64,000 nt of DNA from a bacterium (GCA_043803945.1 JAZDJN010000032.1:12315-76314), one strand, 5' to 3'; positions 31,546 to 54,614 are shown, numbered from the stretch's first letter. Numbers and translations are program-made. The notes: generated by a model not told the origin, from the sequence alone.

Positions 31546-31579
31546 TTTCACTCCTGAGACTCGTACCTTGAGCCCTATT

Positions 31580-32596
31580 ATGAAGATGAGAGAAAAAATC
31601 ACAATTCATGAAGTTGCGAGAAAAGCTGGTGTCTCCGTAGCAACTGTCTCTCGTGTCTATAATAATAGTAATCTGGTGACTGAACCGACAAAGGAACTTG
31701 TCCGTCAGGTTGCAGCAAAGTTACGATACACACCAAGTGTGTCTGCACGAAATCTTAGCAAGAGAAGCACGGAGACGATTGGTCTCCTTCTCCCCGATAT
31801 GCATGGCGAATTCTTCTCTGAGATCATTCGTGGCGCTGATAGTGTTGCACGTGAGTACCAATACCATCTGCTGGTGTCTAGTTCCCATAGCAATAAAGAA
31901 GAGCTCTTTTCCGCAATTCGGACGATGGATGGACGCGTCGATGGACTTGCTATTATGTCTCCACATCTTGATGGTGAAATTCTAAATCATCATGCACTTC
32001 AAGTAATACCAACCGTAGTTATGAGTGCGTCAAAACAAGTTGCACTGCATGATACCGTTAAAGTCGATAATCTCGGTGGAGCAAAGCAGGTCATAAAACA
32101 TCTCCTTGAAAAGGGGCATCGGAAGATCGCCCTGATTAAGGGTGAATCTGGGAATGAAGATTCTGAAGAACGATTTATTGGTTGCCTGAAAACCATGAAA
32201 GGTGCAGGATTGACATTCATTAAGGAGTACATTCTTGATGGAGATTTCACTGACACAAGTGGTTATACGGTTGCTGCAGATCTCCTGAAGAGAAGGGAAC
32301 GGCCTACCGCTATATTTGCCTTCAATGATGAAATGGCAATCGGAGTGTTGCGACTCTTGAGAGAAAAAGGTTTGAAAGTCCCAGCAGATATAGCGGTTGC
32401 CGGTTTTGATGATATCCAAATCTCCAAATTGATCCATCCTTCTCTAACAACGGTCCATGTCAATATCAGCGAACTTGGTTCCAGGTCGATTAAACTTATC
32501 CTGAAGAAATTAAACTCTGAAAAAGAGCGAGAAAAACATTTACACCTTCTCCTCCCAGCATACCTAATTGTCAGAGACTCGACGAGAAAACAGTAA
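31580..32596 (+). CDS. LacI-family transcriptional regulator
   Basis: TIHEVARKAGVSVATVSRV HTH; PTAIFAFNDEMAIG, VAGFDD, PSLTTV. Confidence 0.96.
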   Translation: MKMREKITIHEVARKAGVSVATVSRVYNNSNLVTEPTKELVRQVAAKLRYTPSVSARNLSKRSTETIGLLLPDMHGEFFSEIIRGADSVAREYQYHLLVSSSHSNKEELFSAIRTMDGRVDGLAIMSPHLDGEILNHHALQVIPTVVMSASKQVALHDTVKVDNLGGAKQVIKHLLEKGHRKIALIKGESGNEDSEERFIGCLKTMKGAGLTFIKEYILDGDFTDTSGYTVAADLLKRRERPTAIFAFNDEMAIGVLRLLREKGLKVPADIAVAGFDDIQISKLIHPSLTTVHVNISELGSRSIKLILKKLNSEKEREKHLHLLLPAYLIVRDSTRKQ

Positions 32597-32680: not shown

Positions 32681-34498
32681 ATGAAAAATTTCGTGCTAGT
32701 TGTTTTTTTTCTTGCCTTAATTCTTGCAGGGACAACAACTCTCCTTGCACAAACGGTGTGGGACGATCCACTATCGTTGACGGTAAAGAATGCAACGGGA
32801 GCTGTCACCTTAGACGGCAAGCTCGATGAGTCGGATTGGGCGGGTGCACCGACGCTGGTATTTGGGATGGGAGCGCATTTGAAGAAGCTGGTTGGTGAGT
32901 ACACGGTGACGAGCAGCGCTGATGTGAAGAATGGGTTCGACGATGCGGGAGTGAAGTATTACATACCGCATAAGGACAGCACGGTGACGAGGGTGAAGTT
33001 TTTACGGAAGGGGACGAATCTGTATATCGGCATCCAATCGAATGACAAGTCGATCTGCAAGTTTGATTGGGAAGGCGATGGCATGTTCATGAAGATCAAG
33101 ACGTTGGCCGGACAGGAGAAAGAGTATAAGCTGTATTGGCAGAACATCGAGGCGAACAAGGATACGATACGGTATGAGGAAGGAGTCGCCGGATCAGGAG
33201 ATGGGAAGGGATACCTGTTGACCGGCAGCACGGTGAACGACACGGCAAATACAGACAACGGATATACAGCGGAGATGGTGTTACAGTTGGACAAGTTGGG
33301 GTATGCGTCGACGTTGACGAGCGTTCAGTTGCTTATCAACATATTTGATCCGGATGGATTCAAGCATCCGATGAGCTCGTGGCATCACACGATAGGGTCG
33401 TTTTACAAGTCGTGGTGGGGGAGTGAATGGGGAGGAACGATGAGAACACTGAACTTCACAGCGGAGCCCTTTGATGATCCACCCTCATTGACGGTGAAGA
33501 ATGCGACGGGCGGTGTTACGCTTGATGGGAAGTTAGACGAATCGGATTGGACGGGTGCGCCGACGCTGGTATTTGGGATGGGAGCACATTTGAAGAAGCT
33601 GGCTGGTGAATACACGGTGACGAGCGGCGCTGATGTGAAGAATGGGTTCGACGATGCGGGAGTGAAGTATTACGTACCGCATAAGGACAGCACGGTGACG
33701 AGGGTGAAGTTTTTACGGAAGGGGACGAACCTGTATATCGGTATCCAATCGAATGATAAGTCGATCTGCAAGTTTGATTGGGAAGGCGATGGCATGTTCA
33801 TGAAGATTAAGACGTTGGCCGGGCAGGAGAAGGAGTATAAGCTGTACTGGCAGAACATCGAGGCGAACAAGGATACGATGCGGTATGAGGAAGGAGTTGC
33901 CGGATCGGGAGATGGGAAGGGCTTTCTGCTGACCGGCAGTACGGTGAACGACACGACAAATGTGGACAATGGATATACTGCTGAGCTGATGCTCCAGCTC
34001 GATAAGCTTGGCTATGCCACATCGTCAACGACAGCCCAGGTATCGATTGACATATTTGATCCGGATGGATTCAAGCATCCGATGAGTTCGTGGCATCACA
34101 CGATAGGGTCGTTTTACAAGTCGTGGTGGGGAAGTGAGTGGGGAAGTGCGTATCGGACACTACTCCTCAATAATACCACAGATGTTCGAGATGAGGTCGC
34201 CCTGATCCCGGACGTCTTCTCGCTCTCCCAGAACTATCCAAATCCGTTCAATCCTAGCACAACGATACAGTATGGCATTCCCGAACGGAGTACTGTGGCA
34301 TTGAAAGTCCATGATGTTATTGGTCGTGAGATTGCTACGTTGGTGAATGAAGAACTTCCTGCAGGGACACACCGCATAACGTTCAATGCATCTACGTTAG
34401 CCAGTGGATTCTATTTCTATCGGCTGGTAGCAACTCCTAGAAGCTCTCCGCAGAAGGAACCGTTTATTACTGTAAAGAAATTATTACTCATCAAATGA
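32681..34498 (+). CDS. Secreted T9SS cargo with two near-identical CBM9/DOMON-like domains
   Basis: RBS aggagg; signal peptide; VTLDGKLDESDW and GYTAE motifs twice; C-terminal SQNYPNPFNPST...KKLLLIK type A CTD. Confidence 0.8.
   Translation: MKNFVLVVFFLALILAGTTTLLAQTVWDDPLSLTVKNATGAVTLDGKLDESDWAGAPTLVFGMGAHLKKLVGEYTVTSSADVKNGFDDAGVKYYIPHKDSTVTRVKFLRKGTNLYIGIQSNDKSICKFDWEGDGMFMKIKTLAGQEKEYKLYWQNIEANKDTIRYEEGVAGSGDGKGYLLTGSTVNDTANTDNGYTAEMVLQLDKLGYASTLTSVQLLINIFDPDGFKHPMSSWHHTIGSFYKSWWGSEWGGTMRTLNFTAEPFDDPPSLTVKNATGGVTLDGKLDESDWTGAPTLVFGMGAHLKKLAGEYTVTSGADVKNGFDDAGVKYYVPHKDSTVTRVKFLRKGTNLYIGIQSNDKSICKFDWEGDGMFMKIKTLAGQEKEYKLYWQNIEANKDTMRYEEGVAGSGDGKGFLLTGSTVNDTTNVDNGYTAELMLQLDKLGYATSSTTAQVSIDIFDPDGFKHPMSSWHHTIGSFYKSWWGSEWGSAYRTLLLNNTTDVRDEVALIPDVFSLSQNYPNPFNPSTTIQYGIPERSTVALKVHDVIGREIATLVNEELPAGTHRITFNASTLASGFYFYRLVATPRSSPQKEPFITVKKLLLIK
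32762..34145 (+). repeat. Intragenic tandem duplication, period 711 bp
   Basis: Unit 1 starts at 32762 (DDPLSLTVKNATG) and unit 2 at 33473 (DDPPSLTVKNATG); long identical DNA stretches. Confidence 0.95.
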
Positions 34499-34630: not shown

Positions 34631-36553
34631 ATGAGGCCCTGGAATATCCTTTTTTCGATACTAATCGTATGCATTTTGACTGTAGGTGTCACTCGAGGAC
34701 AAATGATGAAGAGAACCGATGCCCTCTGGGCTCGAGTCGTTCCTGCTGGAACAGTGACTGTTGACGGCAAACTCACTGAATCTGCGTGGGCGAAGGCCGA
34801 GTCTACCGTGATCCGGTATGATCCATCTAACTCAAATAATATCCCCGGGAGCGGATGGAAGTCGGAGCGGTCAGGTGGAAGCTGGAACGGAACGGTGACC
34901 GATCCAACAAGGGCTGTCATCAAGTTCTTAATACAAGGCGATGAGTTGATCCTTGGAGTCTTTGTCTCCGACAGTTCTGTCGGTGGAGGATTGTTCAATG
35001 AATGCGATGGTCTCTTGATGAACTTGCGTGACCATGCCTCGCCAAACCTTCCCGCCCCTCCCTTTGAATACGGTTATGCTTGGGTCACAGAAACGTGGGG
35101 GGATCCAAACGCTGGTAATGTGAATGCCAGTCCGATTTATTTTGGCCCGGTGAAATCCGACCGGTCGATCTATACCGGAGCAACCCAGGTGCTGGGAGTT
35201 TCGAATGATGACAAAAACGGCGGGACAAGTATCACTGCAGATCAAGGTTACACCATGGAAATTCGTTTCAATTTGCCGGCGAGAGGTTACAACGTCAATA
35301 AGCCAGGTGGTGAGATCATTGAGTTCACCCTCTCGGTCTATGATGCAGATTGGCAGTGGCCATATAACGATTCGAAGTTTTACGGAAATCGGGTCTGGTG
35401 GCAAGGACAGTGGGGAAATAGTGATACCTGGAATGTTGGAAGGATCTACGTACGTCAGGATGTTACAATATCGACAACTTCTCTGCCGGTGATTGGTCCT
35501 GATCTGATAATCCCCAATGGAAAAAATCATCCGGCACCAACCATCGATGGGAACCTGACAGAAGGTGTGTGGAAAAAAGCATCAAGTTTTCGCATTACCT
35601 TCAATGATAGCACACTGAGAAAATCCTATCCAGGTGTTGGTCCATGGAGGAGCGGACAAACCCAACCGGTGTTGACCGGTGCCATAGGAACACCCCCGGT
35701 ATTAGATCCTGGAGATGCCGTTTTCAAGTACTTCTTCATTGCAGATACCCTGTACTTAGGTATAGATGTGAACGATCAGGTTGTCACTTCGATTGAAGAT
35801 TATGATCGGTGGGATGCCGTGCGTCTGATGATCAGTTCTCGCGACTCGCTTGAAAAAATTGATCACGTCCTCCTCACACGGATGTTAACGGTTCGGTTTG
35901 ACAACATGGGGAAAATACAGCTCCGAGATTATCTCCAATACCTCGATTCTCTCAAGTATGCTCGTGCAGCATTGAAGATGAAATCTGGAACGACTATTAA
36001 TGATCCAACGGATGCCGATGCAGGATACACTATCGAGATGGCCATTGCCCTCTCGCCGTTTGGCTATCCGGCTGGCCGGGGTGATGGTGTGCTCTTCCTT
36101 GGCGCAACGTTGATGGATGGGGATAAATTCTCGAATGCTGCCGATGATTATGGTACGCGTGCATGGTTCATGCGTGAACATGACCGGAGTTCTGCACCAG
36201 CCTGGTGCTATATGGATCCTAACTCTGTCATCACGTCTGTCGTTGAAGAAACCTCGGTATCACCAGTGCGAGAATTCAGATTACTGGGAAATTATCCGAA
36301 TCCGTTTAATCCGTCCACTACTATTCTCTATGAAATTCCAGATGAAGGTCTAGTAACACTCATAATATACGATGCTCTCGGGCGAATAGTGGAAAAGTCA
36401 AACGCAGGATATCAGAACACGGGTACACACTCTCTCCTGTTTCACGGCCAAGCACTAAGCTCTGGTATCTACTTCTATCACCTTGAGCTGCAGAATGTAC
36501 GATCGACGACTTTAGTGCGTACCTCTCCCGGTAAAATGATTCTTGTAAAATAA
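34631..36553 (+). CDS. Secreted T9SS cargo with two divergent CBM9-like domains
   Basis: RBS aaggagg; signal peptide; VTVDGKLTESAW, PTIDGNLTEGVW, GYTMEIRF, GYTIEMAI; GNYPNPFNPST CTD. Confidence 0.8.
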   Translation: MRPWNILFSILIVCILTVGVTRGQMMKRTDALWARVVPAGTVTVDGKLTESAWAKAESTVIRYDPSNSNNIPGSGWKSERSGGSWNGTVTDPTRAVIKFLIQGDELILGVFVSDSSVGGGLFNECDGLLMNLRDHASPNLPAPPFEYGYAWVTETWGDPNAGNVNASPIYFGPVKSDRSIYTGATQVLGVSNDDKNGGTSITADQGYTMEIRFNLPARGYNVNKPGGEIIEFTLSVYDADWQWPYNDSKFYGNRVWWQGQWGNSDTWNVGRIYVRQDVTISTTSLPVIGPDLIIPNGKNHPAPTIDGNLTEGVWKKASSFRITFNDSTLRKSYPGVGPWRSGQTQPVLTGAIGTPPVLDPGDAVFKYFFIADTLYLGIDVNDQVVTSIEDYDRWDAVRLMISSRDSLEKIDHVLLTRMLTVRFDNMGKIQLRDYLQYLDSLKYARAALKMKSGTTINDPTDADAGYTIEMAIALSPFGYPAGRGDGVLFLGATLMDGDKFSNAADDYGTRAWFMREHDRSSAPAWCYMDPNSVITSVVEETSVSPVREFRLLGNYPNPFNPSTTILYEIPDEGLVTLIIYDALGRIVEKSNAGYQNTGTHSLLFHGQALSSGIYFYHLELQNVRSTTLVRTSPGKMILVK

Positions 36554-36624: not shown

Positions 36625-39300
36625 ATGAAGAGTGCTTTGAGGTCTGAATCACGCTCCTTTTCGTTCCAGTTCCCAATTGTATTACTCTTTTCTCTAGTAC
36701 TTGGTCTGACTCCACTACAAGCAGACACGAAAGGGAAATTGGCAGGAAAAGTCGTTGATAAAAAAAATGAACCTCTTATCGGAGTGAATATCCTCCTGGT
36801 GGGGACAACTCTGGGAAGCGTCACTGATCTTGAGGGGAACTATGTCATCCTGAACATTCCCCCGGCACTCTATCAGGTACGGGTAAGCAGCATTGGTTAT
36901 AGCCCACAGGTTGTGAGCGAAGTGCGCATCTCAGCAGGTCAAACAACCACGATTAATGTAACACTCTCTGAACAAGCTGTCACATTGGAGGAGGTGGTTG
37001 TCAAGGCAGAAAAACCGATCGTCGATGTACGACAAACGAGCTCTGTTGCGATCCTCGGTAAGGACCAGATTGCAGTTCTTCCTGTACAAGACCTGAACGA
37101 TATTGTAAACCTTCAGGCGGGTGTCGTCGATGGACACTTTCGTGGGGGGCGTCTGGGTGAAGTGCAATATCAGGTTGATGGAGTTTCTGTGAATAATCCG
37201 TTTGATAATTCCTCCAGCGTAAAACTCGACAGATCGGTGCTCCAGGAGGTCCAGATCATCAGCGGGACGTTTGATGCTGAGTATGGACAGGCAATGAGTG
37301 GTGTTGTGAACGCCATCTTGAAGAGCGGTTCGGAGGATGCGTTTGAGTGGAATGTGGAACTTTACAGCGGCGATTATATCAACTCTGGCAAGACAGAGCG
37401 ATTCCCGTTTATTAACCGGATTGATCCTCTGGCTATTCAGAGCTATCAAATCAGTCTAAGTGGGCCAACAGGATTAGAGAAGACTACTTTTCTTGTAGGT
37501 GGCCGATATTTCAATAATGCGGGATGTCTCTTTGGTGAACGACGGTTTGTGCCAGGCGATGTGAATGATTTTCAGAGTTATCGATTCCACCCGACGGGAG
37601 ATGGAAAACAGGTTTCCATGGGTGATGCTGAAGAGCTCTCCGGACAATTAAAAATTTCCAATCGCTCACTCGCTGGAATTCAATTAGGTTATCAAGCGAT
37701 CGGCAATGTGATCAAATCCCAATTCTATTCCCACGCTTTTCGCTTCAATCCCGATGGCGCAAAGAAGCAGCGAAGTGTCTCACTGAGCCATGGCATTGAC
37801 GCCACGCATTCCCTATCGAACACATTGTTTTATACTGTGAGCCTGCGTCAAAACTACTATCGCTATACGGATTTTGTCTATGAGGATTTGTTCGATCCAC
37901 GTTATGTGCAGTATGGTTTTCCCAAGGGAGATCGGAATTACGAAGTAGGTGCTTACGTTCAGGGAGTCGATCTGAGCAGATTCAAGCAGGAAACCTCTTC
38001 TTGGATTCTGAAAGCCTCCTTAACAAACCAAATTCAACGCTATCATCTCTTGAAAGCGGGTGCTGAATTTCAGATTTCGAAGATCATCTTTGGTCCACCT
38101 GGGTCATTGGTGCCGACAACTGTGAATGGTGTCCAGGTCCTCGTGCCGATTATCGACAGTCCTGATTATCCGGGATTGAGATCGTATCATCCTCTAATGG
38201 GCTCGGCCTTTATTCAGGATCGGATTGAGTTGGAGGATTTCCTTGTCCGGATTGGTGGGCGGCTCGAATATTTTAATGCTCGATCGGAATTGCCCGGTGA
38301 TTTGCAGAATCCTGCAAATGCAATTTCCGGTGCACCTACTTCGAACCTCAGACCGATAAATCCGAAAATGATTTTTGCTCCGCGGCTTGGCATCTCCTAT
38401 CCCATCACTGATCAGGGATCGATTTTCTTTTCCTATGGACATTTCTATCAGATGCCAGGTCTCGGACAGCTCTTTTCCAATTCTGACTATACGATCTTGA
38501 AAGACTTGCAGGCAGGCAGCATCTCATTTGGCGTTATGGGTAATCCCAATCTTAAACCAGAGTTTACGACGCAATATGAAGTCGGGGTGAAGTCTCAGCT
38601 CTCTTCAAGTCTGGGATTTGATTTTAGTATCTACTATAAAGACATCCGCGACTTGCTTGGAGTGGAATTCGTCTCTACCTATACGGCTGCCGAATACGCA
38701 CGCTTGACGAATGTTGACTTTGGTGAAGTCGAGGGATTCACTCTCGCAATTGATTATCGGAGTGGTGAATTGCTGAGTGCGAGTGTGGATTACAGTTACC
38801 AAATTACGACGGGGAATTCAAGCGATCCGCGCGAAACGGCGACTCGTGCTGCTGGCGGCGAAGATCCTCGCCCGCGGAAAGCTCCGTTAGCATGGGATCA
38901 ACGGCATACGCTCAATGCAAATCTCATCATCTCTGAACGGGAAAATTATTCAATCACCGCTCTTGCCCGATTTGGATCGGGACAACCCTATACACCGACG
39001 GTCTTGAGCCGGCTTGGTGCTAATCTAGAGACGAATTCAGGTCGGAAGGCGACTTTCCTGGTAGCGGATCTCCGCGCTGAAAAATCACTTGACATCTTTG
39101 GTGTACGATGTAGTCTCTTTCTCCGGGTGTTCAACCTTTTTAATACCCACACAGTGAATGGATTTGTGTTCACGGATACGGGTAGCCCTGATTATACGCT
39201 GAATGTCGCAGGGAATGCTTCTCTGCTCCTCGATCCAAGTCGCTACTATCCACCCCGTCGTATAGAACTCGGATTTTCTATGAACAGTATTAGCCGGTGA
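36625..39300 (+). CDS. TonB-dependent receptor with an N-terminal carboxypeptidase-regulatory-like domain (non-SusC type)
   Basis: GKLAGKVVD...PLIGVNI, LEEVVV, plug HFRGGR...YQVDG, GTFDAEYGQAMSGVVN, PRLGISYP, GNPNLKPE, PRRIELG. Confidence 0.92.
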   Translation: MKSALRSESRSFSFQFPIVLLFSLVLGLTPLQADTKGKLAGKVVDKKNEPLIGVNILLVGTTLGSVTDLEGNYVILNIPPALYQVRVSSIGYSPQVVSEVRISAGQTTTINVTLSEQAVTLEEVVVKAEKPIVDVRQTSSVAILGKDQIAVLPVQDLNDIVNLQAGVVDGHFRGGRLGEVQYQVDGVSVNNPFDNSSSVKLDRSVLQEVQIISGTFDAEYGQAMSGVVNAILKSGSEDAFEWNVELYSGDYINSGKTERFPFINRIDPLAIQSYQISLSGPTGLEKTTFLVGGRYFNNAGCLFGERRFVPGDVNDFQSYRFHPTGDGKQVSMGDAEELSGQLKISNRSLAGIQLGYQAIGNVIKSQFYSHAFRFNPDGAKKQRSVSLSHGIDATHSLSNTLFYTVSLRQNYYRYTDFVYEDLFDPRYVQYGFPKGDRNYEVGAYVQGVDLSRFKQETSSWILKASLTNQIQRYHLLKAGAEFQISKIIFGPPGSLVPTTVNGVQVLVPIIDSPDYPGLRSYHPLMGSAFIQDRIELEDFLVRIGGRLEYFNARSELPGDLQNPANAISGAPTSNLRPINPKMIFAPRLGISYPITDQGSIFFSYGHFYQMPGLGQLFSNSDYTILKDLQAGSISFGVMGNPNLKPEFTTQYEVGVKSQLSSSLGFDFSIYYKDIRDLLGVEFVSTYTAAEYARLTNVDFGEVEGFTLAIDYRSGELLSASVDYSYQITTGNSSDPRETATRAAGGEDPRPRKAPLAWDQRHTLNANLIISERENYSITALARFGSGQPYTPTVLSRLGANLETNSGRKATFLVADLRAEKSLDIFGVRCSLFLRVFNLFNTHTVNGFVFTDTGSPDYTLNVAGNASLLLDPSRYYPPRRIELGFSMNSISR

Positions 39301-42300
39301 GTATTTCCATGAACAGACGCTTTGGATGCAAGAAAACACTTGTCCATCTCCTTTTTATCGTTGGATGTGTTGCGCCTGGATTTGGACAGATCCGTACTCC
39401 GGTTCCAGAATCCCAGCGCGGACGCATCGACGCAGAACGATCGGGAATGCATGATGCAGCGAGTATACGTACTGTTTTCTATAACTTTGGCATGGTGGGC
39501 GATTATCCGCCCGATCCGGGTAATGTCGATCTGAGCGTATTCCACTCGGTGGAAGTGCCAAAGGGATTGGGTCTCAACTACAGCGATGGCATTACGCCAT
39601 TTGTCCTTGCAAAAGTGCGGCAGCGGAACGGGGTCAATGCTTATATCATGGAAACGGGATTTCGCGAGCGTCAACAGTGGAGTCCATATACACGACGGGT
39701 GATGAGGTTTGAACCACGGCCGGGTTATATGCAAGCCGACCCCGCCAAGAACATCAAGCGATCGCTCGCATTAAGCAGTGATAAGCGCACCTGGCCTGAT
39801 GAATGGATAGACAAACTCGAAGACGTTACCGATCCGGGATGGAGAGGATCGTGGAACGGCTATTTTGGAAAACGCCCTGCCGCCGATCAAGAGAGCTTCT
39901 TCGTTATGGATGATAATTTTTATGATGCGTGGGACTTCTATCCCGATAGCAGAGATACAACGAGACGGGGTCTTGGTTTGCGCGTGGAGGTTCGAGGATT
40001 TCAATGGTCCAATCCACAGGCAGCCAATGTCATCTTCTGGCACTACGATATCACCAACGAATCCACAACAGACTACAATGATAACATCATCTTCGGTCTC
40101 TACATGGATTCCGGTGTGGGGGGCTCGGCACTTTCATGCGATGGTGTGTATGAATCGGACGACGATAATGCATACTTTGACAAATCCCTCGGCCTTAATC
40201 TCGTTTATACCTGGGATAAGAATGGTCATGGTGTTGCGTTCAATTCCAACTGCGCAACGAGCGGTTTTCTTGGATATGCATATTTGGAGACACCCGGGAA
40301 TTCGACCAATGCAATTGATGATGACGACGATGGGATTCTCAATGAGAAGCGCGATGGTGGACCGGGTCAATTAATAACCGGTCAGGCAGCGATCATGGCG
40401 TTTGTCGCTTCACACTATGACACTGCAAAGTTTCAAGCCGCCTATGGGAAAATTGAGGATCGACCAGCGTTTCGTGCAGGCAAATGGTGGACAGGTGATG
40501 AGGATATGGATTGGGTTGCCGATCTTCATGACACTGGTGTTGATGGGATTTTCAATAAGGATCATCCAGATGTCGGGGAGGGAGATGGAATTCCAACTGC
40601 GGGTGAACCCAACTTCGATCAGACAGATCTCCATGAATCCGATCAAATTGGCCTGACGGGATTTAAGATGAATCGCATCGTTGCCGGTCAGGGTACTCCC
40701 AATCCGCAGGTGGATGACATTGTCTTTTTTGATGATGGTCATGCATGGCCGAAACAACAGTATGAAATGTGGACTGACCCTGTTCAAGAGAAACGATTTG
40801 ATGCTGCACTGGTAAGCAACTATAACATTGGATTCTTTTTTGCCTCGGGGCCGTTCAGACTCCTTCAACAAAAACGTGAACGTTTCAGTCTGGCTCTAGC
40901 CTATGGCAACGACCTCGACGAGTTGAAGCGTACCGTCAAAGTTGTGCAGCAGATTTACAATGCAAATTATCAGTTTGCTGTTCCTCCACCGCTCCCGACC
41001 GTTCAGGCGGAAGCTGGCGATGGGTACGTCCGTCTCTCATGGGATGATGTTGCTGAACGTGGTATCGATCCCGTGACGGGTTTGAATGACTTTGAAGGAT
41101 ATCGTGTCTATCGTTCCACTGATCCAACTTTTCTTGATCCGAAACTTATCTCCAATGCGAGGGGGACGGGTCCGCTACAGGGCAGTAATGGAAGACCCAT
41201 CGTTCAATTTGATCTCAAGAATAGTTTCAGGGGATTTTCCTCGCTTGCCGTTGAGGGTGTCCTATACTATCTGGGTGATGAGACGGGTATTACGCATACC
41301 TGGATTGATACAACGGTGACTAACGGAATCCTCTACTACTATGCAGTGACAGCCTACGACCACGGCGCCGATACTCTTGATTTTCACTTCTATCCTTCGG
41401 AGAATCCAATCAGCGTTACACAGGATGTTCGAGCAGGTATCGTCTTACCACCCAACGTCGCCCAGGTGCGACCGAATCAACGTGTGATGGGCTATCAACC
41501 TGCCGGTGCGAATGAAGCTCTGCGTCGTTCAGGTACAGGTTCCGGTTCGGTGAAGTTAAAAGTCTTGACATCATCGCTTGTGCCGAATAATCATACTCTC
41601 TTGATCAAGTTTAGAACGAATCATCCCGACAGTATCAGGGCAGACTACTACGAGATGATCGACAGCACGACCAATACACTGCTGATCGGTCAAGGCACAG
41701 ATCTGATGGGAGAAGGCATTGGTCAGGTTGGTGCCGGAATTCAACCGATCATTGCTACACCCTTAACGACTTCGGTCGATACCCTTGCGAGTCAGTTCTT
41801 ACCATCTGGTAAAACAAATGTGAAATTGAAATTCACCTATCAGCCAGTTGTCTCTCCAAATCGGAGGAGGTCCGGTTATCCGGCAAATTTGACAATAACC
41901 TTTTCCGATACACCGCTCGATACGACACTTCAGGGCATTGGAAGACCACGCAAACCGGTAAAATACAGCATTGTCGCAATCGATTCGAATAAATCGATTC
42001 CTTTAAAGAGTCAACTCTTCGATCGTGACAACGACAGCACGTTGAGTCGGCCCGGGGAGTATATCGATGTCGTCACTTACTTGCCGGAAGCACTCACATC
42101 GGCAAAGGTCACATGGCGCATTCAGATCGATACCACTCGCATGCCTTCCGGTAGTCAGATCATCATCCCTTGCACAGGAGATCAATTTACCGCCGTTATC
42201 AATAAACCATTCGGTGAGGGAGATGTCTACGCATTCACGACAGTGGGTGAGAGTATTGATAAGGACAAAGCAAAGCAAGAGTTTACCGGTGAGCCCTATG

Positions 42301-42596
42301 TTGTTCCGAATCCGTATGTCGGTTTTTCGAGCTTCGAGCCGGAGCGTTTTGCAGTATCGGGGCGCGGAGAGAGGCGTATTGAATTTCGGAATCTTTCCAA
42401 GCAATGTACAATTCGGATCTTTACCCTTCACGGCGATCTCGTCCAAACACTCTACCATGATGGATCAATGGCAGGTGTTGTCGCCTGGAACTTACGCACG
42501 AAAGACAATTTAGAGGTAGCACCCGGTCTCTATATCTTTCATGTGGAAGGAGGTGAGCTGGGGACGAAAATTGGGAAATTTGCTATTATTAAATAG
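39297..42596 (+). CDS. Large secreted protein with acidic Ca-binding-like loops, an FN3-like domain and a T9SS-like CTD
   Basis: Signal peptide; DDDDDGILNE and DRDNDS; PPPLPTV...LSWD...FEGYRVYRS...YYYAVTAYD; C-terminal VVPNPY...IRIFTLHGDLV...WNL...PGLYIFHV...KFAIIK. Confidence 0.8.
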   Translation: MSISMNRRFGCKKTLVHLLFIVGCVAPGFGQIRTPVPESQRGRIDAERSGMHDAASIRTVFYNFGMVGDYPPDPGNVDLSVFHSVEVPKGLGLNYSDGITPFVLAKVRQRNGVNAYIMETGFRERQQWSPYTRRVMRFEPRPGYMQADPAKNIKRSLALSSDKRTWPDEWIDKLEDVTDPGWRGSWNGYFGKRPAADQESFFVMDDNFYDAWDFYPDSRDTTRRGLGLRVEVRGFQWSNPQAANVIFWHYDITNESTTDYNDNIIFGLYMDSGVGGSALSCDGVYESDDDNAYFDKSLGLNLVYTWDKNGHGVAFNSNCATSGFLGYAYLETPGNSTNAIDDDDDGILNEKRDGGPGQLITGQAAIMAFVASHYDTAKFQAAYGKIEDRPAFRAGKWWTGDEDMDWVADLHDTGVDGIFNKDHPDVGEGDGIPTAGEPNFDQTDLHESDQIGLTGFKMNRIVAGQGTPNPQVDDIVFFDDGHAWPKQQYEMWTDPVQEKRFDAALVSNYNIGFFFASGPFRLLQQKRERFSLALAYGNDLDELKRTVKVVQQIYNANYQFAVPPPLPTVQAEAGDGYVRLSWDDVAERGIDPVTGLNDFEGYRVYRSTDPTFLDPKLISNARGTGPLQGSNGRPIVQFDLKNSFRGFSSLAVEGVLYYLGDETGITHTWIDTTVTNGILYYYAVTAYDHGADTLDFHFYPSENPISVTQDVRAGIVLPPNVAQVRPNQRVMGYQPAGANEALRRSGTGSGSVKLKVLTSSLVPNNHTLLIKFRTNHPDSIRADYYEMIDSTTNTLLIGQGTDLMGEGIGQVGAGIQPIIATPLTTSVDTLASQFLPSGKTNVKLKFTYQPVVSPNRRRSGYPANLTITFSDTPLDTTLQGIGRPRKPVKYSIVAIDSNKSIPLKSQLFDRDNDSTLSRPGEYIDVVTYLPEALTSAKVTWRIQIDTTRMPSGSQIIIPCTGDQFTAVINKPFGEGDVYAFTTVGESIDKDKAKQEFTGEPYVVPNPYVGFSSFEPERFAVSGRGERRIEFRNLSKQCTIRIFTLHGDLVQTLYHDGSMAGVVAWNLRTKDNLEVAPGLYIFHVEGGELGTKIGKFAIIK

Positions 42597-42662
42597 TGGA
42601 TGAAGAGTGTGCTGGATCATCCTCAACGACGGAAAGGGCCAGTGGATATCAGACGAGAGCAT

Positions 42663-43688
42663 ATGAATAAAACATTTTTCTATCGCTGTACAGTGTACCT
42701 GACTTTCTGTTGCAGCCTCGTTGTGATTGCATTGCAGAGTCAGACTAAGACAGGAACAACTGTCGGACAATTCCTGCTCATAGAACCGAGTGCCCGCATC
42801 GCTGCGATGGGAAATGCCGGCGCCGGGGCCTTGAACGAAGTGCAGGCAGGATATTATAATCCAGCGGTATGGGGAACGCTTGAGCGATCAGGTGTTCAAT
42901 TCACTCATAGTCTCTGGCTAGCCGATATTACTTATAACTATGCAAGTGTCGGCGTTAAGACAGGCTCACAGGGAGCGGTTGCGGTGACCTTTACATCACT
43001 GAGTTCAGGTGAAATCGATGTAAGAACTGTTGAACAACCGCTTGGCACGGGCGAACGATATTCGGTCACCAATATAGCGTTGGGATTAGGGTATGGCTAC
43101 CGTTTGAGCGATCGATTCTCCGCAGGTATTACACTGAACTATATTCAGGAAACAATCTGGCATAGCTCGCTTGTTGCAGTTGGCCTGAACTTCGGAACGC
43201 TCTTTCGTGTGACAAGCGATGACCTTTACCTTGGGGCAAGTCTTTCGAACTTCGGAACGCGGGCCAGATACAGTGGGACGGATTTGCGAATCCGGTTTGA
43301 TGGCAATCCATCAACATACGGAGATAACAGTAATCTGCCCGGTGAAGTTTATACAGAAGAATACCCTTTACCGATCCTCTTTCGGGTTGGGCTTAGTTAT
43401 CCTCTTAGGATCGATTCGAAAAATCATCTGTATGTTGCGATCGATGCACTTCATCCGAGCGATAACACGGAGAGCATAAACGTCGGTCTCGAATGGACGT
43501 TTATGGAGATTGTTTCGTTGCGTGGAGGATACCAACAACTTTTCCAAAGGGATTCAGAGATAGGGCTCACCCTGGGAATGGGCCTTCACTATGAGTTCTT
43601 TAGTGTTCCGCTACACCTCGACTACGCCTGGGCAAACTATAAACAGCTTAAAGAGACACAGCGCATCACATTTGGCTTACAATTCTAG
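42663..43688 (+). CDS. PorV/PorQ-family outer membrane beta-barrel (T9SS shuttle-like)
   Basis: FLLIEPSARIAAMGNAG, YYNPA, alternating beta strands, LRGGY, C-terminal Phe (FGLQF). Confidence 0.85.
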   Translation: MNKTFFYRCTVYLTFCCSLVVIALQSQTKTGTTVGQFLLIEPSARIAAMGNAGAGALNEVQAGYYNPAVWGTLERSGVQFTHSLWLADITYNYASVGVKTGSQGAVAVTFTSLSSGEIDVRTVEQPLGTGERYSVTNIALGLGYGYRLSDRFSAGITLNYIQETIWHSSLVAVGLNFGTLFRVTSDDLYLGASLSNFGTRARYSGTDLRIRFDGNPSTYGDNSNLPGEVYTEEYPLPILFRVGLSYPLRIDSKNHLYVAIDALHPSDNTESINVGLEWTFMEIVSLRGGYQQLFQRDSEIGLTLGMGLHYEFFSVPLHLDYAWANYKQLKETQRITFGLQF

Positions 43689-43749: not shown

Positions 43750-46143
43750 TTGTTTAAGACGAAGTATGGCTATTTTTCTTCGAACGGAAAAGAATTCATC
43801 ATCACAAATCCCCAGACACCTCGCCCCTGGGTGAATGTCATCAGCAATGGTGACATGGGCTTCATTCTTTCTCAAGCAGGTGGTGGATACAGTTGGCGAA
43901 CGAATGCACAGATTAATCGGCTGACACGCTGGGAGCAAGACATTGTTAAAGATGAATGGGGAAAATTCCTTTATATCCGTGATGCACAAATCGGAAAACT
44001 ATGGTCTGCAGCGTGGAAGCCATGCTGTGTAACTCCCGACTTCTATGAAGTCCACTATGGTGCGGGATATGCCACTATCCTCTCACGGCTAAATGGAATC
44101 CAGACGGCATGGACAATGTTCGTTGCTCCTGATGAACCGATTGAGCTATGGAAATTAATCGTTACAAATACTTCAAAAAAAAATCGGACGTTACAGCTCT
44201 TCACGTTCTTCGAATGGTGTCTCGGTGCTGCACCGGATTGGCATCGAGAGTTCCATAAATGTTTTATCGAGACGCAGTATGACTCTTCCATGAATGCCAT
44301 TCTTGCCACTAAGCGATTATGGGAAGTTCCTTCTGGACAGGGACACTGGAACGTGGCGTGGCCTTATATTGCATTTCATTCTGTCAATATCAAACCCGCG
44401 GCGTTTGATTGCAGTAAGGAAAATGTCTTGGGCCCTTACGGCACACCGAGTCGACCACTCGGGATCACATCGGGTCGTTTGAAGAAAGCGTCGGGAAATT
44501 ATCACGATCCAGTCGCATCCCTGCACGTTAATGTCGCCTTGGCACCCGGGCAAAGTAAGACACTCATTTTTACACTCGGTGCATCGGCCAATAGGGATGA
44601 AGTCAGGGCTCTCACAAAAAAGTATCGTTCTATTCCAAACGTGGATGCTGCACTTGAGAAGGTTCAGCAACGATGGAATACGTTGCTCTCAGCCTCACAG
44701 GTGAAGACACCCGATGCGTCGATGAATATACTACTGAACCACTGGCTTAAATATCAAGCTATTGCCGGCCGCCTTTGGGGGAGGACTGGCTACTATCAAG
44801 CGGGAGGTGCCTATGGGTACCGGGACCAACTGCAGGATAGCCAGATCTTTCTTTCCGTTCAGCCGGAGAGGACGAAGGAACAAATCCTCCTACATGCACG
44901 TCATCAATTCAAAGACGGCACCGTCTACCATTGGTGGCATCCTCTTTCCGAGGTTGGATACTCCACGGCGATGACAGACGATCTCCTCTGGCTTCCCTTC
45001 CTTGTTAATTCTTATTGGGAAGAAACAGGGGATTCATCAATCCTCGATTGTAAAGAGCCGTTTGTTGATGACCACGAACCATCCTCGCTCTACGATCATT
45101 GCTTTCGCGCTATTGAAAAAACACTTTGCCGGGTCAGCCCTCGAGGGCTTCCGCTCATTGGCGCCGGCGATTGGAACGATGGCTTGAGTGCCGTTGGCCT
45201 GAAATGGAAAGGGGAATCAATATGGCTTGGCGAATTCCTCTATTACATCCTCAAGAGATTCGTGAGAATTACAGCGATTTATGGAGATGCTGCACGGTCG
45301 GAACAATATCTCCGGGAAGCGGAAAAACTCATCTATGCGATTAATCAATATGGATGGGATGGCCACTGGTATTTCTATGGAACAAAAGACTCGGGAGAGA
45401 AGATTGGATCGCAAGAAAATAAGGAAGGCCGCATCCATCTTAATCCTCAAACGTGGGCAATCCTTGCCGATATTGCAGACGGACCACGGGCGTCGGAAGT
45501 CCTTGATGTAATCTTTAAGAATTTAGAAAGTGAAGCTGGCCCTATTCTGCTCTCGCCAGCGTATCATACGCCGGATGAATACATTGGATATCTGACACGG
45601 TATGCACCAGGTACACGAGAGAATGGAGCCACCTACACTCATGCCGCAACATGGGCAATTATTGCCGCTGCGAAACTTGGAGAGGCTGAAGCCGCATATC
45701 GATTGTTTTCAAAAATTAATCCAATCGTGCGCGGGAGTAAACCCGATCACTATTGCGTTGAACCTTATGTATCCCCAGGAAATATTGATGGTCCCGATTC
45801 TGAATTCTATGGTCGCGGAGGATGGACCTGGTACACTGGTTCGGCTGCTTGGCTTTGGAAATCGGGTATGGAATGGATCTTAGGAGTTCGTGCCACTCCT
45901 GAAGGACTGCTCATTAAACCATGCATTCCAGCACAATGGAAAGAATATTCAGTGAAACGGATATTCCGTGGCGCAACGTATCGCATTGCTGTCTCAAATC
46001 CTAATCGTGTCAATCGAGGTATTGTTACTGTCCTTGCTGATGGTCAACCATTGGAAGGATTTCAGCCTGCAGATGAAGTTGTACTCCCACTCTATCCGCC
46101 CAGTTCAAATCATGAAATCACGGTAGTCCTTGGTAAAGAATAG
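43750..46143 (+). CDS. GH94 glycoside phosphorylase, cytoplasmic
   Basis: TPRPWVNVISN, YQAGGAYGYRDQLQD, DDLLWL, GDWNDG, RENGATYTHA, EPYV, WTWYTGSAAW. Confidence 0.93.
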   Translation: MFKTKYGYFSSNGKEFIITNPQTPRPWVNVISNGDMGFILSQAGGGYSWRTNAQINRLTRWEQDIVKDEWGKFLYIRDAQIGKLWSAAWKPCCVTPDFYEVHYGAGYATILSRLNGIQTAWTMFVAPDEPIELWKLIVTNTSKKNRTLQLFTFFEWCLGAAPDWHREFHKCFIETQYDSSMNAILATKRLWEVPSGQGHWNVAWPYIAFHSVNIKPAAFDCSKENVLGPYGTPSRPLGITSGRLKKASGNYHDPVASLHVNVALAPGQSKTLIFTLGASANRDEVRALTKKYRSIPNVDAALEKVQQRWNTLLSASQVKTPDASMNILLNHWLKYQAIAGRLWGRTGYYQAGGAYGYRDQLQDSQIFLSVQPERTKEQILLHARHQFKDGTVYHWWHPLSEVGYSTAMTDDLLWLPFLVNSYWEETGDSSILDCKEPFVDDHEPSSLYDHCFRAIEKTLCRVSPRGLPLIGAGDWNDGLSAVGLKWKGESIWLGEFLYYILKRFVRITAIYGDAARSEQYLREAEKLIYAINQYGWDGHWYFYGTKDSGEKIGSQENKEGRIHLNPQTWAILADIADGPRASEVLDVIFKNLESEAGPILLSPAYHTPDEYIGYLTRYAPGTRENGATYTHAATWAIIAAAKLGEAEAAYRLFSKINPIVRGSKPDHYCVEPYVSPGNIDGPDSEFYGRGGWTWYTGSAAWLWKSGMEWILGVRATPEGLLIKPCIPAQWKEYSVKRIFRGATYRIAVSNPNRVNRGIVTVLADGQPLEGFQPADEVVLPLYPPSSNHEITVVLGKE

Positions 46144-46144
46144 C

Positions 46145-48376
46145 ATGAAAGGAAGACGAAATTCTTTGCTACCAATAAGCTCAACACTACAATACCTTCC
46201 AGAGCGACGCTCGAAGCGTCGCGTCATTGCTCAATGGTTCATTCTCGTCTTACTGCTTATGAATTTCCCAAGCATTGTATTTGCTCAGGGAATGACATTT
46301 TCCATTATTTTTGATGATGACCCGGGTTCAACTGTCTATCGTGATGCCTCGTGGGGATACGCTAATGGAGGAGATTATCTGCGTCTTGCAGGTGCGGGCG
46401 ATAAATTACCACTTGAAACCTCACAGCACTATAGTGGAACAATGTGCGGTGTTCTTGACTATCGTCATGCAACGAATGGAATGTGGGAAATGTTCATCGC
46501 AAGCAACTCGTGGCAATCTCGAGATTTCTCGAGCTATGATAGCCTCGTCTTTTATGTGAATGCTCCTTCGGCAATTCCCGATAATGAACTCCCTCGTCTA
46601 GGTCTTGAAGCCTCGAATAGCGCAAAGAGCGCAATCATCACACTTTCACAATACCTGAGATTGGATGGTTCCACGGTGACATGGCAGCGTGTCAGTATTC
46701 CCTTCAACGCCTTTGAGCCGTTCGGAAGCTTCTCCCTCTCAGCGTTCAAGGCCATACGATTCCTCGCTGGTGGAGAGACCTCTGCAGAACGAACTCTCTG
46801 GATTGATTACATCGGCGCTGTTAAGAAGGGAGCTGTTCTGCCACTCCCGACACTTTCGGATCAGCAACTGCTTGACTCTCTTCAATATAAGGCATTTCTC
46901 TTTTTCTGGAATGAAGCCAATCCATCCAACGGGTTGATTCGAGATCGTAACACGATCACATCATCGGCCAGTATTGCTGCCGTTGGATTTGGATTGACTG
47001 CTATTGCCGTTGCCATTGACCATGGATGGATCACGCGTGACGCCGGACGAGATCGAGTCCTGACAACGCTGAGAACGTTTTGGGAAAAACCGCAGGGGAG
47101 TACTCCGAGCGGAACGATCGGCTACAAAGGATGGTTCTACCATTTCCTTGATATGAATACTGCAACTCGATTATATTCTCCTTCATGGAAGAGTGAACTC
47201 TCATCCATTGACACCGGGCTGTTACTCGCAGGGATTTTATTTTCCCGGGAATATTTTACTGGAAGCGACAGCATTGAAGTCCGCATCAGATCATTAGCAG
47301 ATTCAATATCCAATCGGATTGACTGGCAATGGATGATGGACGGCGGTTCATCGCTGACACATGGATATACTCCTGAAAACAATATGCTCCCTTACCGCTG
47401 GATTGGGTACAGCGAAGCGATGATTCTCTATATTCTTGGAATGGGATCGACCAAAAATCCGGTACCACCGTCTGCATGGAATGCCTGGACCAGTGGGTAT
47501 TCCTGGCTAACTCATTATGGATATTCGCATGTGAATTTTCCCCCGCTGTTCGGTCATCAATATTCACATTGTTGGATCGACTTTCGCTCGATTGCAGATG
47601 GTTACATGCGAGAGAAAAAAATAACATACTTTGAAAACTCCCGCCGTGCAACATTAGCCAATCGTGCTTACTGCATAGCGAATCCTTCAGGATTCCAAGG
47701 TTATGGAGCGACAATCTGGGGACTTACAGCGTGCGATGGACCAACGGGATATAATGCCCGAGGTGCACCTCCAGCGCAAAACGATGATGGAACCATTGCT
47801 CCGACTGCAGCGGCAAGTTCAATGCCGTTCGTACCGAACGAGTCGATCACAGCCATGCAGGCAATGTATACACTCTATGGTCCACAATTGTGGGGGAGAT
47901 ATGGTTTTGGTGATGCTTTCAATCCGACGAAGAACTGGTTCGGATCGGAGGTGATCGGCATCGATCAGGGTCCGATTATTATCATGATCGAAAATTATCG
48001 GACAGGTAAAGTTTGGCAAACATTTATGAAAAATCCTCAAGTGAAGTTGGGATTATCCTCAGCAGGATTTCAACCACTACCAACTGCTATTAATGAACAC
48101 ACGCGGATCCCACAGACAACGATGCTTCATCAGAATTTTCCAAATCCATTTAATCCTTCAACTACCATTCGTTATACCCTTAACGATCCGGGTCAGGTGA
48201 CACTCTCAATTTTTAATGTGATGGGTCAACTCGTGGGGCGGATGACGCACGAGCATTATACGGCAGGAGAATATCAATTCCAGTGGGAGGCAATGAACAA
48301 CCCAAGCGGTATCTATTGTTATCAATTGCAGCATGGTGTGACGTCTCTGACAAAACGTATGATACTTCTTAAATGA
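46145..48376 (+). CDS. GH144 endo-beta-1,2-glucanase-like enzyme with an N-terminal CBM-like domain and T9SS CTD
   Basis: SIAAVGFGLTA, GWFYHF, ELSSIDTGLL, GYSEAM, PLFGHQYSH, WGLTACDGP, GIDQGP; HQNFPNPFNPST. Confidence 0.88.
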   Translation: MKGRRNSLLPISSTLQYLPERRSKRRVIAQWFILVLLLMNFPSIVFAQGMTFSIIFDDDPGSTVYRDASWGYANGGDYLRLAGAGDKLPLETSQHYSGTMCGVLDYRHATNGMWEMFIASNSWQSRDFSSYDSLVFYVNAPSAIPDNELPRLGLEASNSAKSAIITLSQYLRLDGSTVTWQRVSIPFNAFEPFGSFSLSAFKAIRFLAGGETSAERTLWIDYIGAVKKGAVLPLPTLSDQQLLDSLQYKAFLFFWNEANPSNGLIRDRNTITSSASIAAVGFGLTAIAVAIDHGWITRDAGRDRVLTTLRTFWEKPQGSTPSGTIGYKGWFYHFLDMNTATRLYSPSWKSELSSIDTGLLLAGILFSREYFTGSDSIEVRIRSLADSISNRIDWQWMMDGGSSLTHGYTPENNMLPYRWIGYSEAMILYILGMGSTKNPVPPSAWNAWTSGYSWLTHYGYSHVNFPPLFGHQYSHCWIDFRSIADGYMREKKITYFENSRRATLANRAYCIANPSGFQGYGATIWGLTACDGPTGYNARGAPPAQNDDGTIAPTAAASSMPFVPNESITAMQAMYTLYGPQLWGRYGFGDAFNPTKNWFGSEVIGIDQGPIIIMIENYRTGKVWQTFMKNPQVKLGLSSAGFQPLPTAINEHTRIPQTTMLHQNFPNPFNPSTTIRYTLNDPGQVTLSIFNVMGQLVGRMTHEHYTAGEYQFQWEAMNNPSGIYCYQLQHGVTSLTKRMILLK

Positions 48377-48393
48377 GAACAGGGAAACAATCG

Positions 48394-49785: not shown

Positions 49786-49796
49786 AGTATTCAATC

Positions 49797-52436: not shown

Positions 52437-52437
52437 A

Positions 52438-53715: not shown

Positions 53716-53717
53716 CC

Positions 53718-54614
53718 ATGAGGATGAACTCAAGGAGTGTGCGATGGAATATGGCCTTCCTCTTTCTGGCACCGGGATTGGGTGCTTTGTTCTTCTTTTT
53801 TTACCTCCCTGTGGTTGCTGCCTTTGTGCTGAGCTTCACGGATTTTGATATCTATGCTCTCGGGAACATTAGCTACATGCGGTTTGTTGGATTGAAGAAC
53901 TATTTGACACTCCTTCAGGATCCGCTCTTCTGGAAGGCACTCATCAATACCCTCTATTTCGTCGTGGTAGGAGGGCCCCTTTCTGTTTTTGTGTCCCTCG
54001 CAGCAGCATTGCTGGTTAATTCAAAGCTGGTTCGATGGAAGAGCTTCTTCCGATTTTCATACTTTGCACCGGTGGTAACGACGCTTGTAGCTGTGGCCAT
54101 TGTCTGGCGGTATATCTATCAACCGCGGTTTGGTATTCTTAACTTTCTCCTTGGACAATTCGGTGTCCCGCCTATTGATTGGCTTGGTGACCCTGACTGG
54201 GCAATGCCTGCAATCATTCTCCTCGCAGTGTGGAAAAATTTTGGTTACAATATGCTCATCTTTATCGCTGGTCTGCAAAACATCCCCGAGGAACTCTACG
54301 AAGCCGCCCAAATCGATGGTGCTTCAGCAATCCGCCAATTTACCCAAATCACTCTCCCCCTGCTGGCACCGACATCACTCTTTGTGGGATTAACGACCAT
54401 GATTGGATATTTCCAATTGTTCGCTGAACCTTATATTATGACGCAGGGTGGCCCAGTGAATTCCACCTTGAGTATCGTCCTCTTGATGTATCAACATGGA
54501 TTTCGTTGGTGGAGCATGGGGTACTCTGCGTCGATAGCATTTGTCCTTTTTACCATAATTTTCATGGTCTCACTCCTGCAATTGAAGTTTCAGAAGAGAG
54601 GAGAAACTGAATGA
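53718..54614 (+). CDS. Sugar ABC transporter permease (MalF-like)
   Basis: FVGLKNY; EAA loop ELYEAAQIDGA. Confidence 0.94.
   Translation: MRMNSRSVRWNMAFLFLAPGLGALFFFFYLPVVAAFVLSFTDFDIYALGNISYMRFVGLKNYLTLLQDPLFWKALINTLYFVVVGGPLSVFVSLAAALLVNSKLVRWKSFFRFSYFAPVVTTLVAVAIVWRYIYQPRFGILNFLLGQFGVPPIDWLGDPDWAMPAIILLAVWKNFGYNMLIFIAGLQNIPEELYEAAQIDGASAIRQFTQITLPLLAPTSLFVGLTTMIGYFQLFAEPYIMTQGGPVNSTLSIVLLMYQHGFRWWSMGYSASIAFVLFTIIFMVSLLQLKFQKRGETE

Follow-up and report, generated by a model that had tools for sequence, protein, structure and literature searches.

A receptor, a secreted protein and a PorV/PorQ-family barrel as a recurrent gene module in a beta-1,2-glucan locus, and a possible outer-membrane capture unit

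Three adjacent genes and their products

We analyzed a 64,000-nucleotide stretch of bacterial DNA (GCA_043803945.1, JAZDJN010000032.1:12315-76314), here called the window, with a focus on three adjacent genes between positions 36,625 and 43,688. They code for a TonB-dependent receptor, a large secreted protein lacking a Pfam family, here called X, and an outer-membrane barrel of the PorV/PorQ family. An earlier note on the window had described them as a SusD-less glycan uptake triad in which X is exported through a type IX secretion system (T9SS). An open reading frame (ORF) check confirmed this layout on the + strand, with the receptor at 36625-39300, X at 39297-42596 and the barrel at 42600-43688. 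The GTGA overlap noted between receptor and X is present (GTG at 39297-39299, TGA at 39298-39300) and with this start X has the 1099 amino acids given earlier, but ATG 39309 is the likelier start, because the sequence MNRRFG... opens the signal peptide and the database record (P0002) has 1095 amino acids. With this start there is an 8-nucleotide gap in place of the overlap, and X has 1095 amino acids. For the barrel, ATG 42666 is the probable start, given an ortholog consensus that opens with a signal peptide of about 22 amino acids. The three genes and the parts of X, which ends in a variant T9SS C-terminal domain (CTD), are as follows.

36625..39300, + strand: TonB-dependent receptor with a SusC-like N-terminal extension, plug and barrel (PF13715, CarbopepD_reg; PF07715; PF00593)
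39309..42596 (alternative start GTG 39297), + strand: protein X, 1095 amino acids, unannotated, secreted, putative partner of the receptor (no Pfam family)
39420..40973, + strand: head of X, about residues 38-555, a predicted galactose-mutarotase-like beta-supersandwich with Asp-rich loop insertions (structure alignment)
40986..42248, + strand: stalk of X, FN3-like at about residues 560-690 and further beta-sandwiches at about residues 710-980 (AlphaFold2 secondary structure, Foldseek FN3/Ig chains)
42291..42593, + strand: C-terminal domain of X, residues 995-1095, a variant T9SS CTD (tail alignment, weak matches to PorZ and PorU CTDs, predicted barrel binding)
42666..43688 (alternative start ATG 42600), + strand: outer-membrane barrel of the PorV/PorQ family, putative private partner of X (NF033709)

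By Pfam, the receptor comprises an N-terminal CarbopepD_reg domain together with plug and barrel domains. It scores 93.7 bits against the SusC/RagA model TIGR04056 (cut-off 368.25), in an alignment that covers only the N-terminal extension and the plug region. A Pfam scan detected no SusD in the locus, and across the genome (5.54 Mb, 100% complete) the best match to PF07980 reached 20.5 bits (cut-off 23.1) and PF14322 had no match. The designation as SusD-less thus holds for both locus and genome. X itself matches neither a SusD model nor any other Pfam family at E<=0.01, and its predicted fold is almost all beta (AlphaFold2), unlike the mostly helical, tetratricopeptide repeat (TPR)-like fold of SusD.

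The family of X is large and has no Pfam model. X has more than 2257 relatives, of which the best 120 are 60-75% identical to it, and those among these 120 that come with a name from their source are called hypothetical. An exhaustive search gave 3907 representatives of clusters at 50% identity, a search of the ESM Atlas returned unnamed clusters only, and sequence searches of the PDB with X and with the family profile gave marginal matches only, including a weak FN3-like chain (3mpc). The AlphaFold2 model of X (pLDDT 84.7, pTM 0.77) shows a signal peptide, a beta head, an FN3-like domain, beta-sandwiches and a C-terminal sandwich at residues 995-1095, with a loop of low confidence at residues 1004-1019. 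The signal peptide and FN3-like domain (about residues 560-690 in the model) claimed earlier are therefore confirmed, and the acidic, Ca-binding-like loops of the earlier note correspond to Asp-rich stretches at about residues 330-350 and 397-445. Acidic and aromatic residues of X are conserved, among them the invariant E195, D202 and W182.

A Foldseek search with the whole model returned generic FN3/Ig chains with poor TM-scores and was uninformative on the head. When the head was compared with structure representatives by VIA-align, it matched 9ju0 (Z 20.4, root-mean-square deviation (rmsd) 3.0, 261 aligned), 1lf6 (Z 19.4), 2cqs (Z 17.1) and 5h3z (Z 15.6), and aldose epimerases with Z of about 13. 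According to the predicted models, the head has the beta-supersandwich fold of aldose epimerases and of the N-domains of GH15, GH94, GH65 and GH116 enzymes. A second model, of a 785-residue paralog of X coded next to pectin genes in the same genome (pLDDT 79.2), has a head that matches 9ju0 with Z 19.5 and one FN3 domain (Z 10.1). By sequence the two proteins share the FN3 and CTD parts alone, yet they have the same head fold. In both models, a supersandwich head is followed by a stalk, whose length varies, and by a special CTD. The structure search matched no catalytic module in either model, and Pfam gave no catalytic family; X was not recognized as a known enzyme. A lipoprotein anchor at the IVGC of the signal peptide was considered and rejected, given that the Cys is not conserved in orthologs, whose signal peptides mostly end in A-Q.

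In an alignment of the tails of X and its 13 paralogs in this genome with the three type A tails of the window, the X tail carries VVPNPY, then an insertion of 15-22 amino acids, and ends in GKFAIIK. All 14 X tails share VVPNP, the insertion, a "...CTIRIFT..G.LV" stretch, a Trp after the central Gly and a GKFAIIK-like ending, and they lack NPFNPST. The locus contains three further cargo proteins, with N[YF]PNPFNPST tails, from which X differs, as the earlier note had pointed out. These three match the type A CTD models (TIGR04183 and PF18962), whereas X does not at E<=0.01, nor do the 13 paralogs at E<=1e-5, the threshold at which the paralogs also lack any Pfam family. Type B CTD models (PF13585 CHU_C and the NCBI model, which we take to be TIGR04131) were not among the matches of X. 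Three rounds of jackhmmer from the X tail merged with the ordinary CTD family (164 proteins), so that a distant homology of the X CTD with type A CTDs is likely. Likeness in curated libraries was weak and limited to the CTDs of PorZ and PorU: the only NCBIfam match of X was to the PorZ CTD model NF052228 (E 6.4e-4), and PDB matches were to 6za2 (E 0.029) and 5m11 (E 0.034). The modelled CTD of the pectin-locus paralog aligned with the PorZ CTD (5m11) with Z 10.6 and rmsd 2.9 over 89 residues at 24% identity. The X CTD belongs to a separate subfamily, and among known CTDs the retained ones of PorZ and PorU seem to be the most similar to it.

The barrel of the window scores 193 bits against NF033709, the model of the PorV/PorQ family (cut-off 90), and falls below the equivalog models of PorQ (NF033711, 96.8 bits, cut-off 220) and PorV (NF033710, 87.2 bits, cut-off 250). 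All 14 barrels coded with X proteins in this genome likewise pass NF033709 alone (142-213 bits), and none passes the PorV or PorQ equivalog model. The earlier assignment as PorV/PorQ-like is thus correct at the level of the family, but the barrel is neither a PorV nor a PorQ equivalog. In a complex prediction that paired residues 23-340 of the barrel with residues 980-1095 of X, the ipSAE values were 0.91, 0.92 and 0.92, against 0.00 in all three controls; the docking runs shared at least 88% of contacts, with a partner pLDDT of at least 74. The tool's pass mark was an ipSAE of at least 0.32 and of 0.20 above every control, a level reached by 116 of 157 solved complexes and by 2 of 215 mismatched pairs. 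Of the earlier proposal that X is anchored by its own PorV paralogue, the anchoring agrees with the predicted docking of the X CTD on the adjacent barrel, but the barrel is not a PorV equivalog. A role of the barrel as a FadL-like substrate channel was set aside in view of its PorV/PorQ family and its strict pairing with CTD proteins.

Recurrence and conservation of the three genes

When the genome was searched with the barrel and with the C-terminal 110 residues of X, 14 proteins with the X tail were identified, of which 13 are directly preceded by a TonB-dependent receptor and directly followed by a PorV-like barrel. All 14 cluster with a receptor and a non-canonical barrel of the PorV/PorQ family, in agreement with a separate CTD class. 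Among copies with unambiguous starts, X and barrel are 0-34 nucleotides apart; between receptor and X the gaps are 2-36 nucleotides, with one of 202 nucleotides. The triad barrels account for 14 of the 19 PorV-like matches in the genome, and the other five include a canonical PorV (308 bits, adjoining PorU), a PorQ (243 bits) and a PorV2-like barrel, all coded apart from the triads. The T9SS core is represented by PorU (1001 bits) and by SprA, which scores over its cut-off.

Several of the paralog triads lie in a glycan context, namely next to pectin genes (GH28, GH88, UxaE), PL6 lyases or a 3-keto-disaccharide hydrolase, and one cluster combines an alginate lyase and a heparinase-like protein with GH95, GH29, GH97 and GH88. 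A change of order marks the 14th copy (L093, on contig C87 near 29 kb), where X is followed by two other genes and then by receptor and barrel. This form and the reordered forms of other genomes (L108 and L116) have X in first place and the barrel immediately after the receptor, these two remaining neighbors. Three of the 13 triads (contigs C81, C75 and C56; L083:9491-11026, L088:10653-12221 and L091:6421-7962) have a second barrel of 511-522 amino acids after the PorV-like barrel. It shows weak FadL/Toluene_X and BamG-family likeness (36-64 bits, below the cut-offs) and may be an optional fourth member of the module. At two paralog loci we made further observations: an M19 dipeptidase ORF on contig C104 (L085:4374-6107) has a Por_Secre_tail-like stretch at residues 116-189, before the peptidase domain, possibly as an artefact of gene calling, and an AAA_21/DUF4276 pair (L089:1955-3733) adjoining another triad locus looks like a small defence or toxin-antitoxin element.

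For conservation in other genomes we used the best 80 genomic loci of X, many of which are cut by contig ends. All 80 are orthologous beta-1,2-glucan loci, and their record titles name Ignavibacteria, Rhodothermales (including the cultured Roseithermus sacchariphilus MEBiC09517, with its locus at CP030158.1:2685201-2708410), Eisenbacteria, Krumholzibacteriia, Fibrobacteraceae, Calditrichaceae, Kryptoniota and others. Where enough flanking sequence is available, 60 of 61 loci have the receptor directly upstream of X and 70 of 71 have the barrel directly downstream; the one miss on each side stems from a split BLAST segment. The order of the triad is therefore kept across phyla. Median identity across the loci is 59.9% for X, 51.6% for the barrel and 50.8% for the receptor. 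The match between clades of X and adjacent carbohydrate-active enzyme (CAZyme) families for which the earlier note had proposed a test was also observed: the 80 best relatives of X all lie in beta-1,2-glucan loci, and the paralogs lie by pectin, PL6, fucoside and other genes.

Twenty further barrel loci from four other genomes comprised 15 strict triads, two reordered triads, one X-barrel pair without a receptor and two lone barrels of low score. In a sample of 301 genomes of the phylum of the window, with two candidates scored per genome and counts that are thus lower bounds, relatives of the X family were present in 137 (E<=1e-20). The distribution is uneven, with large taxonomic families in which 0 of 63, 0 of 22 or 1 of 16 genomes have a relative and others in which 16 of 16 or 7 of 7 do. 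SprA scored over its cut-off in all five other triad-bearing genomes examined. SusD was absent from four of these five and present only in the cultured Roseithermus (Rhodothermales). Across 29 triads, Mantel correlations of distance matrices were 0.81 for receptor and barrel, 0.78 for receptor and CTD and 0.66 for CTD and barrel (all matrices r 0.66-0.85, each p=0.0002), which implies that the cassettes duplicate and diverge as units. The receptor-X-barrel arrangement is far beyond chance, and the three genes are a conserved, reused module.

The triad of the window is surrounded by the following genes.

31568..32596, + strand: LacI-family repressor, likely regulator of the locus (Pfam LacI and Peripla_BP_3)
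32681..34498, + strand: CBM9-like protein of the cell surface whose T9SS CTD is of the canonical type A (PF06452 CBM9_1, PF18962, TIGR04183; tail NYPNPFNPST)
34631..36553, + strand: another surface protein whose CTD is of the canonical type A, CBM9-like below threshold (PF18962 and TIGR04183 over cut-offs; PF06452 CBM9_1 at 21.2 bits, cut-off 23.4)
43750..46143, + strand: GH94 phosphorylase (PF17167, PF06165; PDB 8rf9, E 4e-166)
46130..48376, + strand: GH144-type glucanase with a type A CTD, surface or secreted (PF10091 and PF18962 over cut-offs; PF21582 CBM30 at 24.7 bits, cut-off 27)
48373..49785, + strand: second GH144-type enzyme, without a CTD (PF10091; PDB 8xul, E 7e-150; endo-beta-1,2-glucanase 5gzh, E 3e-43)
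49698..52436, + strand: GH2-family glycosidase (PF00703, PF02836)
52438..55420, + strand: ABC sugar importer, one solute-binding protein and two permeases (PF01547, PF00528 twice)

Among PDB structures, the GH94 protein most resembles the corresponding domain of cyclic beta-1,2-glucan synthase (8rf9, E 4e-166, compared with 1e-128 for cellobiose phosphorylase). The genes around the triad are a complete beta-1,2-glucan pathway in a locus under likely LacI control, and the GH2 and ABC importer genes (49698-55420) extend the operon, completing a route for beta-1,2-gluco-oligosaccharides from the outer membrane to the cytoplasm. Among the 80 related loci, 55 contain a GH144-like gene and 44 a GH94 gene; with more than half of the query covered, a LacI-like gene was found in 38 and a homolog of the second type A surface protein in 55. 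Elsewhere in the window, a 411-residue ORF without a Pfam or NCBIfam family lies between an RND efflux operon and the LacI gene (29648-30883, - strand), and an AbiEii-type nucleotidyltransferase toxin gene (20923-21801, - strand) looks like part of a small defence or toxin-antitoxin element. At the end of the window (60001-64000) the GC content rises to 0.55-0.56, compared with about 0.47 elsewhere, and a gene for a DDE transposase is located at 62668-63984 (- strand); this stretch may be of mobile or foreign origin.

A possible surface-anchored partner of the receptor

In the explanation that we favor, X is exported by the T9SS, is held by its private barrel and serves the receptor as a substrate-binding partner, so that the three proteins form one outer-membrane nutrient-capture unit. 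We consider this the best explanation and, by a small measure, a probable one. After export, the CTD of X would remain uncleaved and receive no lipid anchor, staying docked on the PorV-like barrel coded downstream and thereby tethering X at the surface. The beta-supersandwich head, carried on the FN3/Ig stalk, would bind substrate, which in this locus would be beta-1,2-glucan fragments released by the T9SS-exported GH144 enzyme, and X would hand this substrate to the co-encoded receptor, a role comparable to that of SusD or of surface glycan-binding proteins in Bacteroidia. Products would then pass to the periplasmic GH144 and GH2 enzymes, the ABC importer and the GH94 enzyme. The receptor-X-barrel cassette would be generic, with diverged heads serving other substrates in this genome and in several phyla of the Fibrobacteres-Chlorobi-Bacteroidetes (FCB) group, and most of the FCB-group phyla with the cassette lack SusD in the genomes checked. 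Surface anchoring of X by the barrel is supported in silico by the predicted complex. The data themselves establish the order of the genes and their recurrence, separate subfamilies of CTD and barrel, the fold of X and a T9SS core in the genome. The arrangement of the genes, their co-diversification, the fold of the head, a T9SS in the genome and the lack of SusD are the grounds on which we infer T9SS export of X and its partnership with the receptor.

A stronger version, which we advance tentatively and hold to be possible rather than probable, is that receptor, X and barrel form a stable three-protein machine, in which the barrel is a lasting structural subunit and the head closes over the transporter as a lid that loads substrate. 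Such a machine, built with the T9SS, would have solved the task of SusD independently. Glycans and peptides would enter Ignavibacteria, Rhodothermales, Calditrichota, Eisenbacteria, Krumholzibacteria and neighboring groups mainly through it, and it may be older than SusCD in the FCB group. The earlier note had likewise proposed a functional substitute for SusD. This agrees with a genome that has triads and lacks SusD, but the Rhodothermales genome has SusD genes and triads together. Because Roseithermus carries both, the triad is not simply the replacement of SusD.

A number of observations weigh against X as a barrel-held, substrate-binding partner of the receptor. In 46 of 49 loci X shows a higher identity than the receptor, which is unusual for a substrate-binding accessory protein and unlike SusD relative to SusC. 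The Mantel correlations reflect joint inheritance, which is expected with or without contact between the proteins. Contact or coupling of X with the receptor, and ligand binding by X, we only infer. The head fold by itself does not show binding, as it is also the fold of an enzyme, aldose 1-epimerase, and of non-catalytic N-domains of glycosidases. What points to retention of the CTD on X is a weak sequence similarity. Solved T9SS complexes that include PorV exist, and the CTD-barrel score may in part be the predictor's memory of these; it indicates likeness of interaction and is not proof of binding. A tree of the barrels leaves the triad barrels unseparated from PorV and PorV2, with two changes needed for the triad label and one origin still possible. 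Finally, other paralog triads lie next to an M28 peptidase, next to an M19 dipeptidase and NamZ, or next to a racemase and a TRAP-type transporter. The earlier term glycan uptake therefore suits the triads in CAZyme loci, but some contexts are not clearly glycan, and as a label for the family "glycan" is too narrow.

Alternatively, X and its barrel could be a free-standing surface glycan-binding protein of the SusE/SusF type, which concentrates polymer and is co-regulated with the receptor but physically separate from it. The same data would fit, apart from any contact with the receptor; the long FN3/Ig stalk could keep the head off the membrane, and one X-barrel pair (L113) has no adjoining receptor. 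Against this speak a receptor that is directly adjacent in 13 of the 14 copies in this genome and that stays by the barrel in reordered copies, and three proteins that diversify together. The unusually high conservation of X, moreover, suggests several fixed protein partners. We consider a free-standing binder rather unlikely.

The high conservation of X and its invariant E195, D202 and W182 could also be those of an enzyme that is anchored at the surface and processes the polymer before import, perhaps as a glycanase, lyase or epimerase of a family not yet described, with the mutarotase-like fold as its basis, and the head fold is common to aldose 1-epimerases (Z of about 13) and to domains of polysaccharide lyases and glycosidases. 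Yet neither model matched a catalytic family, an (alpha/alpha)6 module or a TIM module, and the locus already codes for a T9SS-exported GH144 endo-glucanase. One head fold for substrates as unrelated as pectin and beta-1,2-glucan fits a scaffold better than a single chemistry, and we regard an enzymatic X as improbable.

Least probable of all, in our estimation, is a barrel that acts as a transient shuttle or chaperone for a large cargo, after which PorU cleaves the CTD and X is attached to lipopolysaccharide or released: the genome has PorU, the iterated search ties the X CTD to the ordinary CTD family (164 proteins, three rounds) and the founding member of the PorV/PorQ family is a shuttle as described in PMC5562754, but other large type A cargo in the same loci has no private barrel, the X CTD lacks NPFNPST and has a family-specific insertion, its database likeness is limited to two CTDs known as retained, and a strict one-to-one pairing of 14 cargo proteins with 14 barrels would be costly for a transient step.

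The module compared with known systems

In our literature searches, for which subscription journals and supplements were outside coverage, we found no description of a receptor-X-barrel module, and passages of the Caldithrix abyssi genome paper contain nothing on it. The module is thus apparently undescribed in print. FCB lineages that are large and abundant in the environment but lack SusD would, as the triad suggests, have uptake units of a different build, in which the T9SS and private PorV-like barrels mount a capture protein. If this is true, the combination of a receptor, a variant-CTD protein and a PorV-like barrel would be a marker for substrate-utilization loci in these phyla, and a role would be assigned to a large family without Pfam annotation (the 3907 clusters at 50% identity). 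The known use of PorV/PorQ-type barrels would widen from parts of the secretion machine to general surface anchors, and the cultured Roseithermus sacchariphilus would offer a test organism. The module is of high interest to those working on polysaccharide utilization loci (PULs) and on the T9SS.

SusC/SusD is the textbook model of polymer uptake in Bacteroidota, and tools for PUL prediction key on the SusC/SusD pair. Like SusC/SusD (and RagA/RagB), the module has a TonB-dependent receptor with an N-terminal extension coded directly before a surface partner, lies in regulated CAZyme loci and occurs as many paralogs for different substrates, and the modelled X heads keep one fold despite diverged sequences. 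By contrast, X is not SusD: its head is a supersandwich and not a TPR-like helical fold, it has no conserved lipobox, it ends in a T9SS-type CTD and it comes with a third gene, and the receptor fails the SusC/RagA cut-off. Dedicated surface-exposed lipoprotein partners of TonB-dependent transporters, lipid-anchored, are also known from BtuB-BtuG in Bacteroides and from TbpA-TbpB with the Slam translocon in Neisseria, where a third gene, for an outer-membrane barrel, serves the surface protein. The anchoring proposed for X differs from that of BtuG and TbpB in being a protein-protein contact, of a T9SS CTD with a PorV-like barrel, and not lipid.

On the T9SS side, the sub-complexes PorZ:PorQ and PorU:PorV anchor surface proteins in Porphyromonas, as reported in PMC5562754. 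There, a T9SS substrate with a retained, atypical CTD is held one-to-one by a barrel of the PorV/PorQ family (PMC5562754, PMC10947112), and the X CTD is weakly similar in sequence and is predicted to dock on its barrel. Those proteins, however, are single-copy parts of the secretion machine, whereas here there are 14 cargo-barrel pairs, each clustered with a receptor, in addition to canonical PorV, PorQ and PorU. In type B systems (SprB-SprF; PG1035-PorP), a cargo-specific outer-membrane partner of the PorP/SprF type is likewise coded next to the cargo gene and provides surface anchorage, as described in PMC9143113. In contrast to these, the X CTD is not of type B, the barrel is of the PorV/PorQ family, and type B systems have no TonB-dependent receptor. 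In the module described here, elements of known kinds are combined: the pairing of a TonB transporter and a surface protein, and a T9SS anchor made of a CTD and a barrel.

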